Part shown: in pieces, positions 1 through 8,288 of the stretch
Layout of the letters: each line of letters starts with the position of its first letter
How positions within the stretch are numbered: the first letter of the stretch is position 1
IMG/VR virus record: IMGVR_UViG_2737471854_000004
Coordinates: 1 to 49,583 of that record
DNA: 49,583 nt
Reading direction: 5' to 3' (one strand)
Source of the DNA: a virus
Lineage: Duplodnaviria; Heunggongvirae; Uroviricota; Caudoviricetes
Made by a program: the position numbers and the translations under genes
The notes under the pieces: model-generated
Database searches by the model: none
Told to the model about the DNA's origin: nothing
Seen by the model: only the letters and a program-made list of their open reading frames with translations

Positions 1-246
1 CTACGATAACCCACTCTTTTGTTGCCCCATTTTTGCCCCTTTTGCAGCGTTTTGCCCCATTTTTGCCACCGAAAAATGCGAGAATTTCTCAATCTGTAGC
101 CTGCAAATTGCGCCCATGAATTCTTTCCAAGAGAATCAGTTTCGGCTGGAAATCATTCAATACTCACACTAAAACAAAAAGCCCGCTTATGGTGGACTGC
201 AGGCTTTTAGATTCCGTGATTTAAAAACAATAGTTATAGAAACAAA

Positions 247-1455
247 TTACCAGCCTACAGCAATACCCCCTCCGATTACTGCTCCATCAGTATTATTCCA
301 TGAAGACGATGCACGAATATTGGTGTTTTCATTAAGTTTGTATTGAACACCAACAGCTACTGCATTACCGTTTCTATAGTTACCAACCCCAACGCCGGCA
401 CTAAATGTCTGGTTATTCACATACGGGATATTGGTCATTGCTGCTACGGAAGCAATACCTGCATTAGCTTTTTTAGCATTAGCTTCTATCTTATCATTCA
501 GCTGCTTAAATGTTGAATTTATCTTCCCATTAATTTGGTTAAATTTTGTATCAGTATATGCGAATGATTCTTGTTTTGCTGATTGTATGTTTTTATTAAT
601 AACACCGTTATTTTTCGTAACTTCCTGATCAGTGTATGCCAGTGATTCATTCTTGGCATTATTAATATTCTGATTTATCACAGCATTATTTTTGGTAACC
701 TGCTGATCTGTATATGCCAGTGATTCATTCTTGGCATTATTGATGTTTTGATTAATTACGGTATTATTTTTAGCTATCTCATTCCCAGTATAATCTTTCA
801 GTTGCTTAACGTTAACACCATCAGTATCCTCAGTACCTGCGGCAACATGGGTCAGTTGTCGATTAGTATTACCCGTCCCAAAAGATACACTATACTCTCT
901 GTCAGTTGTACTTCCCCCGCCGATGGCAACACTATTATTATGTTCAGCCACACTCTGTGAGCCTAGTGAGATGGCATTTTCTGCATTAGATGTAGCCCCT
1001 ACACCAATAGCTAATGTATCTCCTGCAGTCGCCTGGGCGGAGGAACCAAATGCAACACTGTTTTCCCCGGTTGCTTTAGACGCAGCACCTACACTTGTAG
1101 AATTAGCGACTGCCTCACTACCCGCACCATTTGCTATAGCTGAATCACCGTTTACTTTACTAAATGAACCAATGGCTACCGAGTTATTTCCAACAACATT
1201 TGCATTTGCGCCAATAGCTGACGATGAGTTACCTTGAGATGAAGAATATGAACCAATTGCAGTATTATAGGCTCCTTCGGTTTTTGAAACAGCGCCAATT
1301 GTTGTAGAAGAAGAACCTGAAGCATTTGCATATGCACCAATAGCTGTCGCATTACTATCAGTTGCCTGGCTATTATCACCGGCATTATAAGAATTATATG
1401 CATAAGAATTTGCTGAAACTGTAAATATAACAGAGGCTACAAATAGTTTTTTCAT
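247..1455 (-). CDS. Trimeric autotransporter adhesin, YadA/Eib-like (prophage moron)
   Basis: ORF 247..1497; likely start at MKKLFVASVIFTVSANSYA (signal peptide). Many NSxAxG head-type repeats, three tandem stalk repeats (NAVINQNINNAKNESLAYTDQQVTK), C-terminal membrane anchor ending GGIAVGW. Confidence 0.8.
   Translation of the reverse strand: MKKLFVASVIFTVSANSYAYNSYNAGDNSQATDSNATAIGAYANASGSSSTTIGAVSKTEGAYNTAIGSYSSSQGNSSSAIGANANVVGNNSVAIGSFSKVNGDSAIANGAGSEAVANSTSVGAASKATGENSVAFGSSAQATAGDTLAIGVGATSNAENAISLGSQSVAEHNNSVAIGGGSTTDREYSVSFGTGNTNRQLTHVAAGTEDTDGVNVKQLKDYTGNEIAKNNTVINQNINNAKNESLAYTDQQVTKNNAVINQNINNAKNESLAYTDQEVTKNNGVINKNIQSAKQESFAYTDTKFNQINGKINSTFKQLNDKIEANAKKANAGIASVAAMTNIPYVNNQTFSAGVGVGNYRNGNAVAVGVQYKLNENTNIRASSSWNNTDGAVIGGGIAVGW
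540..780. repeat. Tandem ~78-bp coding repeats inside the adhesin stalk
   Basis: Near-identical DNA units 'gtatatgccagtgattcattcttggcattatt...' repeated 2-3 times; correspond to the repeated peptide ESLAYTDQQVTKNNAVINQNINNAKN. Confidence 0.6.
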
Positions 1456-2250
1456 AGAAATGACGTATGTTAAATAGATTGAAAAGATAAGATTCAAATC
1501 AATTAAATGACGCTTTAAAAATAAGCGGCAGGATTTTATTCATCTGATAAAAATAGCGCAAGAGTTGTCTTATATGGAATATTCAGATAAGTCTTATTGA
1601 AAAAACGGTATAACAAATACATAACATTACGGCCATTATAAATACATTATAAAAATTACAGAGATATTTAATTAAATCCAAAGCATTTTTTCAATATGGA
1701 TTTCGAAGAACTTGTTATAGTACATTAATCAATCAATTATAGGTATTTCGCTCACTGTTCATATAGTTTTAATACATCAATGCATAAGAACATTTTCTCA
1801 TTCATAAAAGCGATAAAAACTGTTGTACCTTATATTGTTAATGTTTGGTAACAAAGACAAATCCAACAAGGCATTGATCATCCCCTATGATACCCATAGA
1901 AAGAATTATCTGAAATATAATAACGATATAAAGTATATTATTGCTAATGAAACTATATGATAGCTTCACATTCAGCAATACCTGCTCAACCTTATCTCTG
2001 GAAATGAACATTGCTAACTTTCCTACTCCTTAATCGTTCTCCCAGAGCGCATCATCCACACCGACAATCCCCTCAGGCATCAGCCAGGTGACATTTTCCG
2101 CTAATGGGCTGGTTCAGAGATAAATAGTGCGTCCCCGGAAGCCAAGTCAAAGAGCATTTTTCCCCTGTGACCTTCAACGGCTACTTACTGTTTAAAAACA
2201 GCTACGATGCCAGCATAGATACTCTTGAATACGATGTACTACGTTTTTTC

Positions 2251-2604
2251 TTATTCTGGACTGAACTCCCTAACCTGCTTCAAATCCAGGAGATTGCTCA
2301 GTTCCTCTTTCATTTCACGCTGATGACGATAAATCTCATTATTGCGATCAACCTGCGCCATAGCTGCAGCCAGCTCCTCCAGTTCCGTCATCGACAGTTT
2401 CACCTGCTGATTATCAGCATCACTCCATGTCATAACGTCCCACTGCCCTGAGTCAGCCCCTGCAGCCATTACCACCGGGTAAAGGCGGGCCAGCGAGTCG
2501 GGGCCGCCATTCCAGGTGTGTCCGTTCCATTCGAATGTGAACGGCTGCGCTTCCTGTTCTGTGCGCCACACCTCGATTTCCCGCTTTCTGGCATCCTTTC
2601 CCAC
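2251..2604 (-). pseudogene. Tail-fibre-assembly-like C-terminal fragment (remnant)
   Basis: 117-aa ORF with a motif (FTFEWNGHTWNG...) that I read as Tfa/DUF4376-like; no upstream partner gene; lies in a GC-rich block with broken frames. Confidence 0.3.
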
Positions 2605-3003
2605 GGCGATAAGTTCTGGCGTGACGGTGAACGCAGGGCTGTCCAGTGGCGTTTTGTTTTCGTCTCGTCCATGACGGTTTTGACAGCCTTTGGCGTGGCT
2701 GCCAGTACTTCGCTGTCGTTGTCTGTATCACTACAGAGTTGCGCCAGACCTTTTTTGTCGTGGAAGCATTGCTTCCCTTCAGATCATCAACTATCCATTG
2801 CGCCTCGTCCCTGTGCTGTTTCGCGCTCTGCTGCGCCTGCACCACAGTTTCCTGTCACCACGTCGGCAACTGTGCGCATCACACCTCTGAGGTGTTTACC
2901 CGGGATTTCAGAGTTATGTGGCATCCGTACATGGGGATGCCTGCGCCATCAATCAGCGCACCTGATATCACTACAGACATAGTTTTTCTCGCGATAAATT
3001 AAA

Positions 3004-3549
3004 TCAGGAAGAGGCTTCCAGAGAGACGGGCCATTCAATGGCGTTATATGAGGATTTATCAGTGATGGTGCTGAAATCCATCGCCTGCAGCGATTTCGCG
3101 TAAATGCGGTACGCTTTCAGCTTCTCCCTGTCGTCGTCACTGATTAATCCCAGCAGCAGGTCTTTTTCCCATTCGCTGGTCATGATGCTGACCCGTTGTA
3201 ACAGGGCATCGCGCTCATCTTCCGCTTTAAGTTTGTAGTCGAAGACAAATTTATCGTCGCGGTAAAACCAGTAACCAGGCACGGTAATACGGCGGTTAGC
3301 GGTAATATCAGGAACTTCAATAACACTGGCGTTACGGGGTTCAATGCCTGTCACATCCTTACCGACCCATACCACGCGCCCGTCTCCGGTGTAAACCATT
3401 TTTATGGTGTCACTGGCAAAATTTTTCAGCTCTTCATACCAGTTTTGGTCATCTTCCGAAAAAAGCCAGGTGATACCATGTTGTTTTGTCATCTGATATT
3501 GTTCTGCGGTTTTCGGATTGCCTGCAGTAATATTTTTTAAATGCAACAT
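3004..3549 (-). CDS. Tail fibre assembly protein (Tfa/gpU-like)
   Basis: 181 aa immediately downstream of the tail fibre gene; C-terminal ...KLKAYRIYAKSLQAMD...IEWP motif typical of tail fibre chaperones. Confidence 0.7.
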   Translation of the reverse strand: MLHLKNITAGNPKTAEQYQMTKQHGITWLFSEDDQNWYEELKNFASDTIKMVYTGDGRVVWVGKDVTGIEPRNASVIEVPDITANRRITVPGYWFYRDDKFVFDYKLKAEDERDALLQRVSIMTSEWEKDLLLGLISDDDREKLKAYRIYAKSLQAMDFSTITDKSSYNAIEWPVSLEASS

Positions 3550-3551
3550 TG

Positions 3552-5105
3552 TTAAACACTCGCCACGTTATACCAGGTGCCGTTAATCAGTTTCTGAAGC
3601 GGTCGGTAATACACGCCGTTGACGTTATCCGCTGAATTTTTACCAGTATCCGATATCGATATCCCTGACAATCCGTGTCCCGCAGGAGCGTGATATGTCC
3701 AAGAGATTACATTGCTGCCAGGTTTGTAATACATTTCGGAACCATAGCGCACATCCTGCACGCCGCCATTTCGCTGCTGATAACGGGCATCGAAATTTCC
3801 ATAGTTTGATGGGGTCATCTGTCCGTTTACAGCGAATGTGATACTGCCATCGGTATTTCTCTGGCTGTAAAAATGCCAGCCGGAATCATCACCAAGCTCT
3901 GCAACTACAGGTCGGGATGAATTACCCCATAAATTAAACGTTGCGTTTTTCGTGGAGTTGTTGGCGCTGGATAACGTGAATTTTTTAGCATTTCCGGCCT
4001 GAATATTTTTTAACGCTATCGCCACACCATTCTGGAAACGAAATACATGCTGTCCATTCGCATAAACATCCAGAATGCCGTCGCCGTTTTGTTTTATACC
4101 TGTATCGTTATCCCCGAAAGCAATTGAGTTTCCGCCCAGCGCGTTCTGAACGCCGATACCCAGTGCACCATTGACCTGAGAACCACCGCCAACAGACACT
4201 TTATGCGACATGGATATCTCTCCTGTCCGCAAATTAATGGTGAGCGGACGCAGGGGACCAATATCTCCATTCTCGCCCTGACCTTCACTAGTAGGGATAA
4301 GGTGCAGGCACTCTTCAGAACGGCGAAAAATAAGGCCAAAAGCCTCGTTAAAAATCCTCAATGCATTAACACCACGTATTTTCAGCTCCCCGGTCATCAA
4401 ATCACCAGATTTTTTTACATATCGCAGATCAAAATCTGAATAGATATTGCCGGGGTTTATCACACTGAAATAGCTTTTCTCGCTATCAAGAAGGCAAATC
4501 AAAGGAATACCCTTAATGATATCATTCGCTACCAGCTCGGACTTGTTCCCCTTATAAAGTGGGAACGTACCAAGAACCTTTCCGCCTAGTGTTAGTTGAA
4601 GTGTCGCCGCGTTGGTATTGTTCTGAACGGGGAAAACTATAATCGGGGTTCGTAGCGTCCAATCTGTACCTCCATTAACAAAAAACGTCGAGGGAAGTTC
4701 CAGCGTCAGTGCGTTTGCAGTGCCACCAGTAACACCCGCAATATAATGACCGCTCTGAAGCTGCGCTATCTGTACGAAATAGTTTTCCGAACCACGCGTG
4801 GCAAAGTTAGCCACAACATCATTAAGGGACCAACCTTTCGCGGTTGTTCCTTCCTGCCCACGAATGACTTTCAACACATCACCGCTTACCGATACCAAGT
4901 GACAAATCTCAAATGCAGACTCTTTATTATCGGTAAGCGTAATTTTTGCATAGACGCGTTGCCCGTTCGATTTATTTTCAAAATCGGCAGAAAGCAATTT
5001 TGCAAATTTAGCCCCTGTACCGGGCATTACCGGAATATCAGTCTGAATCGTGGTGATATCACCAGCCAGTGCTGAAACAACGTTATTGCCGAACCCAAGA
5101 ATCAT
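3552..5105 (-). CDS. Tail fibre protein
   Basis: 517 aa, Gly/Asn/Thr-rich, follows baseplate genes and precedes tfa with a 3-nt gap. Confidence 0.7.
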   Translation of the reverse strand: MILGFGNNVVSALAGDITTIQTDIPVMPGTGAKFAKLLSADFENKSNGQRVYAKITLTDNKESAFEICHLVSVSGDVLKVIRGQEGTTAKGWSLNDVVANFATRGSENYFVQIAQLQSGHYIAGVTGGTANALTLELPSTFFVNGGTDWTLRTPIIVFPVQNNTNAATLQLTLGGKVLGTFPLYKGNKSELVANDIIKGIPLICLLDSEKSYFSVINPGNIYSDFDLRYVKKSGDLMTGELKIRGVNALRIFNEAFGLIFRRSEECLHLIPTSEGQGENGDIGPLRPLTINLRTGEISMSHKVSVGGGSQVNGALGIGVQNALGGNSIAFGDNDTGIKQNGDGILDVYANGQHVFRFQNGVAIALKNIQAGNAKKFTLSSANNSTKNATFNLWGNSSRPVVAELGDDSGWHFYSQRNTDGSITFAVNGQMTPSNYGNFDARYQQRNGGVQDVRYGSEMYYKPGSNVISWTYHAPAGHGLSGISISDTGKNSADNVNGVYYRPLQKLINGTWYNVASV

Positions 5106-5728: not shown

Positions 5729-6938
5729 ACTTGTTGACCTGAACCTGTGATGCCACCGTTGAAAAATAGGAATAGGTATCGCCATAAACCAGGCTTGTAT
5801 CTTTCGCCGGAAGAACAATGTGGCCGTTAATACCAATGCTCACACTGATTGTTGAGATCAACGTCGAATCAACCAGCAACCTGACAGAACTGGTAAAAAT
5901 ATCCTGGATACGCAGAAGATTTATCGGGTGTCCGACTTCAATTGAATTGATGTAATCAGCAACGTTTTGCTGCACAGCCATAGCAATACCCGCCGGATCA
6001 ACATAATCATCAGACACCGTGTTCCAGGTGATTAGCACCATGACGTTTTGTGATGACGGGATAACGAACGGCACCTGATAAACGTCCGGCGAAACGGTTA
6101 TTGAAACCGTGCGTTTTTCCACTGCCGCACCGGATGGATTGCTTACATCGTTGGTCAGTTTCGAAATATCCGGTACAGATTTGTAAATCGCATAAGCCAC
6201 ATCATACGGATCACCGCCACCAACAACCGCAACCCATTTCCCCAGCGACGACTGCCGGAAAGAAATCAGGTTTTCTCGCACACCGCTTACTGATTTGAGC
6301 ATCGCTTTAAAGCAATCCGGAGTTCCCTGCACACCAAACATGCCGGACTCCATGACTTCGGCGCGGTAAGATGCCCACGTCTGCGCCTCCTGACCTGGCA
6401 TCCCTGCGGTAAGGTTCGTGCATTTTACAGGCTGGTCTTTTGGTACTGAGGTAATAACCTGCGTCACAGTCCCTTCCGGCACAGCCCATGAGCCTGACGT
6501 TGTGGCCACACAGTAGACTGGTTCAGACTGCCCACTTTCCGGCACCACCGTATCGCGGGAAACTGCATACTGGTAGTTGCCATCACCGACAACAAATCCT
6601 TTAGGGATACCAAACCCCGGCAACGCCTCAAATACCACGTATACCGCAGTATTTGTACTTAATCCCTTCTGTGCTCCATAAATGTTTCCGAGTTGCATCA
6701 GTAACGGAATATTCGCACCGTATGGGCTTACGGAGTTAATAAGGTCCACCCGCGCCTGGTCTATTAATGCCAGCGCCCCGATAGCCGTGCTGGCAAGGTC
6801 TGTAATAAGTCCCGCCGGAAGGTTGGCTGTATATCTAGGTACTTTTTCAGCAACTCTGATGATAAGATTTGCAAGCAAATCATTGGGTGGCGTAGGCTGC
6901 GCCCCCGCACTGGTCATAGTAATTGGTATTTCTGACAT
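5712..6938 (-). CDS. Baseplate J-like protein
   Basis: 408 aa; size and position typical of baseplate J / Mu gp47 family upstream of the tail fibre. Confidence 0.55.
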   Translation of the reverse strand: MSEIPITMTSAGAQPTPPNDLLANLIIRVAEKVPRYTANLPAGLITDLASTAIGALALIDQARVDLINSVSPYGANIPLLMQLGNIYGAQKGLSTNTAVYVVFEALPGFGIPKGFVVGDGNYQYAVSRDTVVPESGQSEPVYCVATTSGSWAVPEGTVTQVITSVPKDQPVKCTNLTAGMPGQEAQTWASYRAEVMESGMFGVQGTPDCFKAMLKSVSGVRENLISFRQSSLGKWVAVVGGGDPYDVAYAIYKSVPDISKLTNDVSNPSGAAVEKRTVSITVSPDVYQVPFVIPSSQNVMVLITWNTVSDDYVDPAGIAMAVQQNVADYINSIEVGHPINLLRIQDIFTSSVRLLVDSTLISTISVSIGINGHIVLPAKDTSLVYGDTYSYFSTVASQVQVNKYAISD

Positions 6939-6949
6939 ATTTACTCCAT

Positions 6950-6977
6950 TAAAAAACCCGCTTTCGCGGGTTTTTTA
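6950..6977. terminator. Bidirectional intrinsic terminator hairpin
   Basis: AAAAAACCCGCtttcGCGGGTTTTTT: 6-bp GC stem flanked by an A-run and a T-run, so it reads as a terminator on both strands; sits directly after the cargo gene stop. Confidence 0.7.
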
Positions 6978-6978
6978 C

Positions 6979-8139
6979 TTATTCAACCTCTTCTAAACTG
7001 CTCACTCTGGACCCTCGGCGGAAATTATCATCATTTTTAACATACTCGTATGAATCCAGAATCAAACCAGATATGCGAAGTATATCTTCAGGATTAGTTA
7101 TATGTATCCTTTTACCATCCGTATCAAGTCGAGCTCGTCTTATTTCATTCAACTGAACTTCACTAAGCGAAATAGGTAAAGTTATAAATGAAGATTTTTT
7201 ATCATAAAATCTTAACAGCCATCTATTGGTTTTACCATTCAATAGTACGCCGAAATATGACTCAGTATCTTTATATTCTATATTATCTTCTGTTTGTATG
7301 ATTTGTTTTACCCTTTCAAATAGCTCCAATTCTTTGGCTGTGGTTATTATGTTGGGGTTTTCTTCATCAACAATGGCGTTATTAACTTGTGTATCCGTTG
7401 CATCATTTTCTTTAGTTTGCTCTACCGGTTGTGTAGATAGCCCGGAAACCACCATTGCGCTAACAGCGCGCTCAACGGCCTGTTTAACTAATGGAGTCAC
7501 GAACTCAAGAAATCTCTGATTAAGTTGTCTCTCAATATTTGAACGACTAGCAACATATCGAACAAACTCCAGATCAACTTCACGAAGACTAGAACTGATT
7601 GTTTTAGTAAATGAATTCAAATAAACACTTTCTTCAGCCAGTGTCCGTAAAGCCTCTGGTTTGAATTTATCATAACGAAAACGAAATAATTGTGTAATAT
7701 CGGAGTGAGTTAGAGAATCCATTCTTATTTTTAAAAACGGCGTTGAATCCATTATGTTTTTTTGTTTCAAATCCGTAAAAAAACGCCATTCAACACCATT
7801 TGTAATGGCTGATATAGTAACTTCCGGTGTTGAATTAAAATATCTTGATAGCTGTGGGCAGTGATTATCAATTTGTTCTGAAAACGATTTCGCCTCAATG
7901 AACATCACAGGAACATCATGACAAAATAAAGCGTAATCAACCCGTTCATTAGCCTTAACCCCGGGGAAGTCAGCACTATACTCAGCTTTGACTTTTCTTG
8001 GATCATACGGAGTAAAACCAAGAATATCTAGTAATGGCATAATGAGTGCTTGTTTTGTCGTTTCTTCAGTTGTACAAAACACCCCCATTTTTGCAACATG
8101 CTCTGTGTGTATTTTTAACTTATTTGCAAAATTTTCCAT
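6979..8139 (-). CDS. Cargo protein with N-terminal HsdR-N/Mrr-type PD-(D/E)xK nuclease-fold domain; C-terminal domain unknown
   Basis: ORF 6979..8154; GGAGG RBS favours the second ATG (MENFANK). Motif TEETTKQALIMPLLDILGF...VDYALF...VMFIEAKS...QLSRYF. AT-rich and non-overlapping, unlike its neighbours. Confidence 0.6.
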   Translation of the reverse strand: MENFANKLKIHTEHVAKMGVFCTTEETTKQALIMPLLDILGFTPYDPRKVKAEYSADFPGVKANERVDYALFCHDVPVMFIEAKSFSEQIDNHCPQLSRYFNSTPEVTISAITNGVEWRFFTDLKQKNIMDSTPFLKIRMDSLTHSDITQLFRFRYDKFKPEALRTLAEESVYLNSFTKTISSSLREVDLEFVRYVASRSNIERQLNQRFLEFVTPLVKQAVERAVSAMVVSGLSTQPVEQTKENDATDTQVNNAIVDEENPNIITTAKELELFERVKQIIQTEDNIEYKDTESYFGVLLNGKTNRWLLRFYDKKSSFITLPISLSEVQLNEIRRARLDTDGKRIHITNPEDILRISGLILDSYEYVKNDDNFRRGSRVSSLEEVE

Positions 8140-8288
8140 GCTTGTCTCCTCCATGGTAACAATATGTATTTTGCAAATCCGAAATAATATATGTCAATAT
8201 GCTCCAGCTTAGAAAATTACTCGCCCCCCTAAAATATCTCTCTACAGCACTCCAAACCAAGGTAAAAGTTTTATCATAAAACTGTGAT

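Follow-up and report, generated by a model that had tools for sequence, protein, structure and literature searches.

A 49,583-nucleotide stretch of DNA from a virus of the Caudoviricetes (IMG/VR record IMGVR_UViG_2737471854_000004, positions 1 to 49,583), hereafter the window, carries close to one end a gene for a YadA-like trimeric autotransporter adhesin (TAA). The gene occupies 247-1455 on the minus strand as a complete coding sequence of 402 amino acids (aa), as established from its open reading frame (ORF), its translation and Pfam, and we consider it quite probable that a Rac-SA53-like prophage integrated beside uspF carries it, intact, as cargo (a 'moron') for the production of a short adhesin of the YadA type. 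Comparison of its alleles also provides direct evidence, at the level of sequence, for intragenic unequal recombination or slippage at the array of repeats that encodes the stalk. The adhesin belongs to a known family, of which it is an ordinary and so far uncharacterised representative, and both prophage-borne TAAs and variation in the number of stalk repeats are already known phenomena.

Architecture of the adhesin

The coding sequence starts with the ATG at window position 1455, a start that RefSeq places identically in near-identical genomes; strains C41 and ZYB62 carry the gene at 99.6% identity under the label 'YadA-like family protein'. The Pfam profiles for all three parts of such an adhesin are matched above their curated cut-offs: YadA_head (PF05658) in five stretches (6.5e-17), YadA_stalk (PF05662) at aa 200-241 (1.9e-7; 31.8 bits against a cut-off of 28.4) and YadA_anchor (PF03895) at aa 347-401 (9.5e-8; 32.4 bits against 22.7). 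Sequence searches of the PDB matched the head to that of YadA (1p9h, 6.4e-22) as well as to the heads of BpaC, SadA and BoaA, and the anchor to those of YadA (2lme, 2.2e-6) and AtaA (9vnj, 2.1e-6). We also built an AlphaFold2 (AF2) model of the monomer from an alignment of 22 homologues (predicted template-modelling score, pTM, 0.47), with which Foldseek retrieved the heads of BpaC, BoaA, EibD and YadA and the anchors of Hia, AtaA and YadA. An earlier note, made from the sequence of the window without database searches, had called the product a trimeric autotransporter of the YadA family, and on this point Pfam, the PDB, AF2 and Foldseek agree with it.

The protein begins with a signal peptide at aa 1-19 (MKKLFVASVIFTVSANSYA, then Y; 1399-1455; this and all other parts of the gene lie on the minus strand). 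The earlier note had seen a signal peptide as well; it was recognised by inspection only and looks like a Sec signal, with a hydrophobic core of 12 residues between a positively charged n-region (MKK) and an S-Y-A motif of the cleavage type, cleavage being expected between SYA and Y. This segment is 35-60% identical between lineages, whereas the mature protein is conserved; the per-residue confidence of the AF2 model (pLDDT) is below 50 at aa 1-21. The head follows at aa 21-202 (850-1395) and is predicted to be a YadA-like, left-handed parallel beta-roll of thirteen 14-residue repeats, an assignment to which the register, Pfam, 1p9h, AF2 and Foldseek all contribute. Its 13 rows keep a perfect 14-residue register, and AF2 models aa 23-202 as a beta-solenoid at pLDDT 90-98 with strands every 7 residues. 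The head had been described as consisting of many NSxAxG repeats; the repeats are there, all 13 of them, but the strict N-S-x-A-x-G motif occurs just three times, the remaining rows having the looser form xSxA[IF]G.

The neck and the start of the stalk, assigned from Pfam YadA_stalk, lie at aa 203-222 (HVAAGTEDTDGVNVKQLKDY; 790-849), with four neck residues (G207, D212, N215 and Q218) that are invariant in 22 homologues. From there a coiled-coil stalk of about 19 nm extends over aa 216-341 (433-810), predicted from the periodicity and from the AF2 monomer model, in which this part is a single continuous helix free of any non-helical insertion. Hydrophobic residues recur in the stalk with a period of 3.70-3.78 residues (3.74-3.78 over the repeats), in agreement with 26/7 = 3.71 (26 residues in 7 turns, as 11 + 15), and this fits a non-heptad, right-handed coil of the hendecad/pentadecad type, as in the stalks of YadA and Eib. 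The membrane anchor occupies aa 342-402 (250-432) and is supported by Pfam, 2lme, 9vnj, AF2 and Foldseek; its four beta-strands were modelled at 351-360, 363-375, 378-387 and 393-400. The chain closes with ...IAVGW, so that the anchor indeed ends in W, as had been noted, and the YadA_anchor profile confirms what that ending suggested.

By analogy with the type Vc pathway, the 19-residue signal peptide would take the protein through Sec, the C-terminal four-strand segments of three chains would assemble into a 12-strand barrel in the outer membrane, and the passenger would be exported through this barrel to form a trimeric lollipop with a 13-turn head, a neck and a stalk of about 19 nm. Each added 26-residue unit of the stalk would display the head about 3.9 nm further out. 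The earlier note had proposed a surface adhesin of lysogenic conversion; to judge from the family, the product may confer adhesion, autoaggregation and/or serum resistance on the lysogen.

A probable cargo gene at the edge of a Rac-SA53-like prophage

Over 82% of its length, window 2000-25000 agrees with phage Rac-SA53 at 95% identity, and the same phage provides the frame in which the position of the adhesin gene can be read. Window 1-171 corresponds to Rac-SA53 51875-51706 and is within the prophage, about 90 bp from the annotated attB (51961-51986), beyond which lies uspF; from 2269 on, the window corresponds to Rac-SA53 51629 and lower coordinates. Between these two blocks stands a 2.1-kb cargo insertion (172-2268), which contains the adhesin gene and, compared with Rac-SA53, has taken the place of 76 bp separating the last tail gene from attR. 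Both this alignment and the RefSeq neighbours of the gene bear out its placement at the prophage edge, just beyond the tail-fibre module. A search for direct or inverted repeats bracketing the 2.1-kb insertion found none, so that no mechanism of insertion can be proposed.

The insertion also differs in composition, the guanine-plus-cytosine (GC) content being 39.1% in the adhesin gene, 27.6% in the DNA upstream of it (1456-2010) and 45.9% in the window. This upstream stretch, presumed from its composition to be the regulatory region of the gene on the minus strand, is 555 bp long, and the AT-rich region described earlier is thus present at 27.6% GC. It was found in 13 of 5,426 complete Escherichia coli genomes, with the adhesin gene alongside in 11 of the 11 loci inspected.

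Copy-number variation in the stalk array

The stalk contains three tandem repeats of 26 aa (78 bp) at aa 230-307 (535-768), with unit 1 at 691-768, unit 2 at 613-690 and unit 3 at 535-612, and every unit has an AYTD motif of the YxD type. Tandem Repeats Finder reports a period of 78 with 2.3-2.5 copies and 78-83% matches at window 595-792. The DNA of unit 1 agrees with that of unit 2 at 84.6%, with a longest exact in-register run of 29 nt and 12 differences (10 synonymous and 2 non-synonymous); unit 3 is 64-65% identical to either. The description of these units as near-identical was therefore overstated, as they agree at 85% (units 1 and 2) and about 65% (unit 3).

The number of units varies from isolate to isolate, as the earlier note had supposed that it might. 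Among alleles drawn from finished genomes and plasmids, those at the uspF locus have three units (402 aa) in the window and in C41, and by inference from matching length and identity in ZYB62; four units (428 aa) in A2; and five units (454-455 aa) in KY180, A17, NWU_3, NWU_4, JNU, EC11 and mip270_05. Two further lineages vary as well: one on an insertion-sequence (IS) island adjacent to asrA has four units (STEC309) or five (STEC711 and 400660), and one on IncF plasmids has three (pEA5_1), four (pP393F10IncF) or five (pRHB07-C17_2). Since arrays of three, four and five units occur in independently finished genomes, an assembly artefact, which the earlier note had named as the finding that would undo its account of the repeats, is ruled out.

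Outside the array, the proteins of the uspF locus are 100% identical, and the array itself changes by whole 78-bp units and in frame, with the exception of NWU_4, which has one added in-frame codon. That codon places an extra Met in unit 4 of NWU_4 (NNAVMINQ..., 455 aa), where it would shift the coiled-coil register locally. Recent duplication is suggested by the five-unit alleles, whose internal units share 99% of their DNA sequence. The window has a chimeric unit 2: its bases 1-55 are of the middle unit type of the five-unit alleles and its bases 56-78 of the penultimate type. A chimeric middle unit of this kind points to unequal recombination among the units, or slippage, as the process that alters the array. 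In C41, unit 2 is of the penultimate type throughout, and its junction differs from that in the three-unit allele of the window; because these two three-unit alleles have different junctions, the array appears to have been reshaped more than once. On this comparison the window probably carries a contracted three-unit allele. BLAST had also placed a mosaic breakpoint at window 550, which we rejected as a recombination junction: it reflects the splitting of alignments over the repeats, the alleles being identical outside the array.

It would be tempting to regard the polymorphism of three, four and five units as adaptive, with some 3.9 nm per unit tuning the reach of the head past O-antigen or capsule, and recombination at the array re-fitting the adhesin whenever it enters a host with another surface; what the prophage brings would then be an adhesin of adjustable length. 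We consider this idea unlikely. A related possibility is that the phage profits from the adhesin as well, which might for instance shield receptors from superinfecting phages.

Constraint and signs of decay

Several observations weigh against an intact and functioning cargo adhesin, or against parts of our account of it. The gene is rare, being present in 31 of 5,426 complete E. coli genomes, 13 of them with the exact locus. No recognisable Shine-Dalgarno sequence precedes the ATG, and promoter calls are at chance level: a pattern scan of window 1-2300 gave 8 promoter-like sites against 9.4 expected and is uninformative. The alleles of RM11911, TK3046 and GPEC349 are frameshifted or split into two ORFs, which indicates that the gene is dispensable, and being lost, in some backgrounds. 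The neck and anchor of the AF2 model are of low confidence, and the trimer geometry and the handedness of the supercoil were taken solely from the periodicity. As for the array, the direction of change (contraction from five units as opposed to expansion from three) is read from allele frequency and the chimeric unit. The homologues in RM11911 and TK3046 (3001-4366 of the compared stretches) are located at a different prophage end, by a tRNA-Ser/hyaA site or beside another integrase, whereas that of GPEC349 (3001-4355 of the compared stretch) is on the asrA island.

Taken to their end, some of these points would make the gene a silent, decaying remnant, its repeat differences being neutral noise or assembly artefacts. 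Besides the rarity of the gene, the frameshifted alleles and the want of a clear Shine-Dalgarno sequence or promoter, this explanation can draw on surroundings that are full of tail-fibre gene fragments and on the AT-rich DNA upstream, which is of the kind silenced by H-NS. However, the frame of 402 codons is intact, and the ratio of non-synonymous to synonymous substitution rates (dN/dS) between lineages is 0.03-0.08 over dS values of 0.3-2.0 (0.038-0.08 for head plus neck, 0.03-0.07 for the C-terminal part), which shows that the gene has been kept functional. The array also speaks against decay, since its length changes by whole 78-bp units that keep the frame (one added codon in NWU_4 aside), and since 10 of the 12 substitutions that distinguish unit 1 from unit 2 are synonymous. 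Moreover, identical alleles recur in independent finished genomes. We thus regard a silent remnant as improbable.

Relationship to the Eib proteins

The earlier note had called the adhesin Eib-like, and a second explanation accordingly sees in it an Eib-type immunoglobulin (Ig)-binding protein whose stalk would bind IgG Fc or IgA non-immunologically. The Eib proteins are likewise prophage-borne TAAs with a YadA-like head, neck and anchor, encoded at the end of a tail-fibre module after a DUF4376 gene, and the adhesin shares with them its overall lollipop architecture. It also shares their slot, as each of eibC, eibD and eibE is immediately preceded by orf-191 (DUF4376, Pfam 1.4e-19), whose product is 38% identical to the DUF4376 protein encoded beside the adhesin gene in C41. 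That the gene stands where eibC, eibD and eibE do, immediately downstream of a DUF4376 gene of the orf-191 type, can be upheld as context, which does not define the family. In the PDB search, EibD (2xqh) gave a weak match over the head (4.8e-5).

Membership of the Eib family, in contrast, could not be sustained. Our comparison covered EibC, EibD and EibE of ECOR-9 prophages. These three are 71-87% identical to one another, whereas the adhesin is 25.5-27% identical to them, and its BLAST scores rank them (63-76 bits) below Saa (102 bits, 26.5%) and a YadA-like protein of plasmid pKY178 (245 bits, 37%). The alignments begin at Eib residue 150-157, the Eib N-terminal domain being absent from the adhesin, whose head starts at aa 21. 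While the stalk of Eib consists of a right-handed coil, a saddle and a left-handed coil, that of the adhesin consists of tandem 26-aa repeats, and the Eib saddle, together with the ...TDRIDY388AVG... segment that follows it, aligns only to gaps or to these repeats. The unbroken AF2 helix at aa 216-341 also leaves no room for a saddle.

The segment ...RIDY388... by which EibD binds IgG has no alignable counterpart in the adhesin; a D221-Y222 pair occurs just after the neck, at a structural position that differs from that of the EibD segment. According to Kotaka et al. 2026 (PMC13534694), the IgG-binding segment contains a conserved Asp that EibG needs in order to bind Fc, related E. coli adhesins without this Asp lose Fc binding, and lineages that share less than 50% similarity are kept separate. 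On the sequence comparison, the adhesin would not bind IgG Fc by the mechanism of Eib, and we consider an Eib-type Ig-binding protein highly improbable.

The adhesin gene and phage tail genes

It is very improbable that the product is a structural component of the phage (a trimer of the tail fibre or associated with the tail) rather than a protein of the bacterial surface: although the gene adjoins the tail-fibre genes on the same strand, and the labels 'tail protein' or 'tail fiber' are given in several phage records to proteins that match aa 274-388, a Sec-type signal peptide opens the product and a complete YadA anchor, whose last residue is aromatic, closes it, the 555-bp AT-rich spacer and gene remnants separate the adhesin gene from the tail genes, Rac-SA53 has the same tail module and lacks this gene, close alleles occur with no phage nearby on IncF plasmids, on the asrA-adjacent IS island and in Proteus beside RTX toxin genes, and the only basis for those phage 'tail protein' labels that were checked is a YadA_anchor match.

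Two proteins in phage records look like mis-annotated TAA cargo genes on the basis of their sequence. Escherichia phage phiSTEC1589-Stx1c has beside bor a 403-aa 'terminase large subunit' with a YadA_anchor match (1.3e-11; 2164-3375 of the compared stretch), and gp126 of Proteus phage Privateer, a 194-aa 'tail protein' encoded among early and Ter genes, has another (4.6e-10; 2285-2869 of the compared stretch). Many 'tail protein' or 'agglutinating adhesin' entries of N4-like phages of Salmonella, Cronobacter and Erwinia match aa 274-388 likewise.

Other relatives and the origin of the gene

Apart from Eib, the known adhesins close to ours include YadA and Saa. The adhesin resembles YadA of Yersinia in size and in having a signal peptide, a head formed by a beta-roll of 14-residue repeats (38% identity in the Foldseek alignment of the head), a neck, a non-heptad stalk with YxD-type motifs and a four-strand anchor. 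However, it scores 111.7 bits on the NCBIfam YadA model, whose cut-off is 750, and is thus not a YadA orthologue. YadA is encoded on pYV, whereas the E. coli adhesin is found on a prophage, plasmid or island and has a stalk of 26-aa repeats.

Saa, the STEC autoagglutinating adhesin from plasmid pO113, is likewise a short E. coli TAA on a mobile element, with a stalk of five 37-aa repeat units and a Y-T-x motif, and among the functionally characterised E. coli adhesins compared it gave the top BLAST score (102 bits over 362 aa). It differs in its repeat length (37 aa as against 26 aa), in being plasmid-borne, in its very short YadA-like head and in an N-terminal region of about 180 aa that is absent from the adhesin, the alignment starting at Saa residue 183. 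Orthology to Saa was considered and rejected, given 26.5% identity and the absence of this Saa-specific region. The alleles of saa differ in their count of 37-aa units; a limited search of the literature for published text on such repeat variants found none.

In PMC13534694, the name 'Yal' is given to adhesin-like clades of unknown function, which are described as trimers of lollipop shape that have neither N-terminal domain nor saddle and are closer to Saa than to Eib. The adhesin fits this description and may belong to one of these clades. JNEC-KY180, a strain from that study, carries a five-unit allele of the adhesin gene at the uspF locus. The YadA-like protein of pKY178 (WP_258291797.1) also has a tandem-repeat stalk, with repeats of about 30 aa, and its head is shorter than that of the adhesin. 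Because this plasmid adhesin is only 37% identical to ours, the published YalA is probably a different gene.

Outside Escherichia, a large protein search found the best homologues in Proteus, Morganella, Providencia and Xenorhabdus. This search missed the near-identical E. coli alleles, probably since the low-complexity head repeats swamp its word index, and an exact look-up of four alleles in the large protein collection found none of them present. The homologues from the Morganellaceae (Proteus columbae and Proteus penneri P0001) are 51-55% identical to the adhesin, over the full length in P. columbae, and resemble it in head, neck, anchor and low GC, but differ in having a 41-aa stalk repeat (26 + 15). 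That of P. columbae, with 458 aa and 51% identity, is encoded on the chromosome next to an hlyC/RTX toxin pair and outside any prophage (6001-7374 of the compared stretch).

The adhesin gene is now known from four genomic contexts, which include the prophage, IncF plasmids and the asrA-adjacent IS island, and the E. coli genomes that carry it come mostly from cattle, other animals or the environment. Its low GC, its relatives in the Morganellaceae and its occurrence on IncF plasmids and on an IS-rich island make it a natural inference that the gene was acquired horizontally, presumably from a low-GC member of the Enterobacterales.

Neighbouring features of the window

Downstream of the adhesin gene, at 169-208 on the minus strand, folding of 160-246 gives a candidate intrinsic terminator with a 10-bp stem and a 12-nt loop followed by UGUUUU. 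It is statistically weak (z = -1.64), and the pattern scan missed it because of its long loop. An Rfam scan of window 1-3000 at E <= 1 matched nothing.

On the other side, two remnants lie within 2070-2604 (minus strand): a fragment of a tail-fibre assembly gene at about 2070-2179 and, at 2251-2604, the 3' portion of a DUF4376 gene. They were identified from a RefSeq pseudogene in C41 and from Pfam. The DUF4376 remnant matches its profile at 1.2e-17 and lacks the N-terminal part of the 188-aa protein of C41. Window 2010-3003 as a whole consists of tail-fibre debris, including short Rac-SA53 tail-fibre fragments, between the intact assembly gene and the adhesin gene, and this debris suggests that the prophage has recombined here more than once. 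Next on the minus strand come the intact genes for tail-fibre assembly (3004-3549) and for the tail fibre (3552-5105), as seen from their ORFs and from Pfam (Caudo_TAP, 6.4e-22). Further into the tail and baseplate module, a 391-aa ORF (6979-8154) has a counterpart in KY180 that is annotated as a 'type I restriction endonuclease' beside the baseplate J gene, which is an odd placement.

Window 22-67 contains a tandem motif of 10-11 bp, TTGCCCC(A/T)TT, in 4.2-4.5 copies, with an exact 16-nt direct repeat at 22-37 and 52-67. The motif is found within the prophage, about 110-160 bp from the Rac-SA53 attB, and may represent arm-type sites for integrase or excisionase. The top match in the phage collection to window 2000-25000 is PP818812.1, 'Actinobacillus phage vB_Apl-pPE4', at 95.5% over 87%; its host label, Actinobacillus pleuropneumoniae, looks doubtful.

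Implications

The current understanding of the adhesin family is unchanged by these results. What they add is a further documented surface adhesin that an E. coli prophage carries as cargo beside its tail-fibre genes, and the observation that the slot of Eib is here occupied by a different, uncharacterised lineage which also moves on IncF plasmids and IS islands. For annotation, it follows that a prophage-borne TAA should not be named Eib without the saddle and the IgG-binding segment. Furthermore, the alleles with three, four and five units constitute a clean natural series in which the length of the stalk could be related to adhesion, autoaggregation and serum resistance behind different O-antigens.

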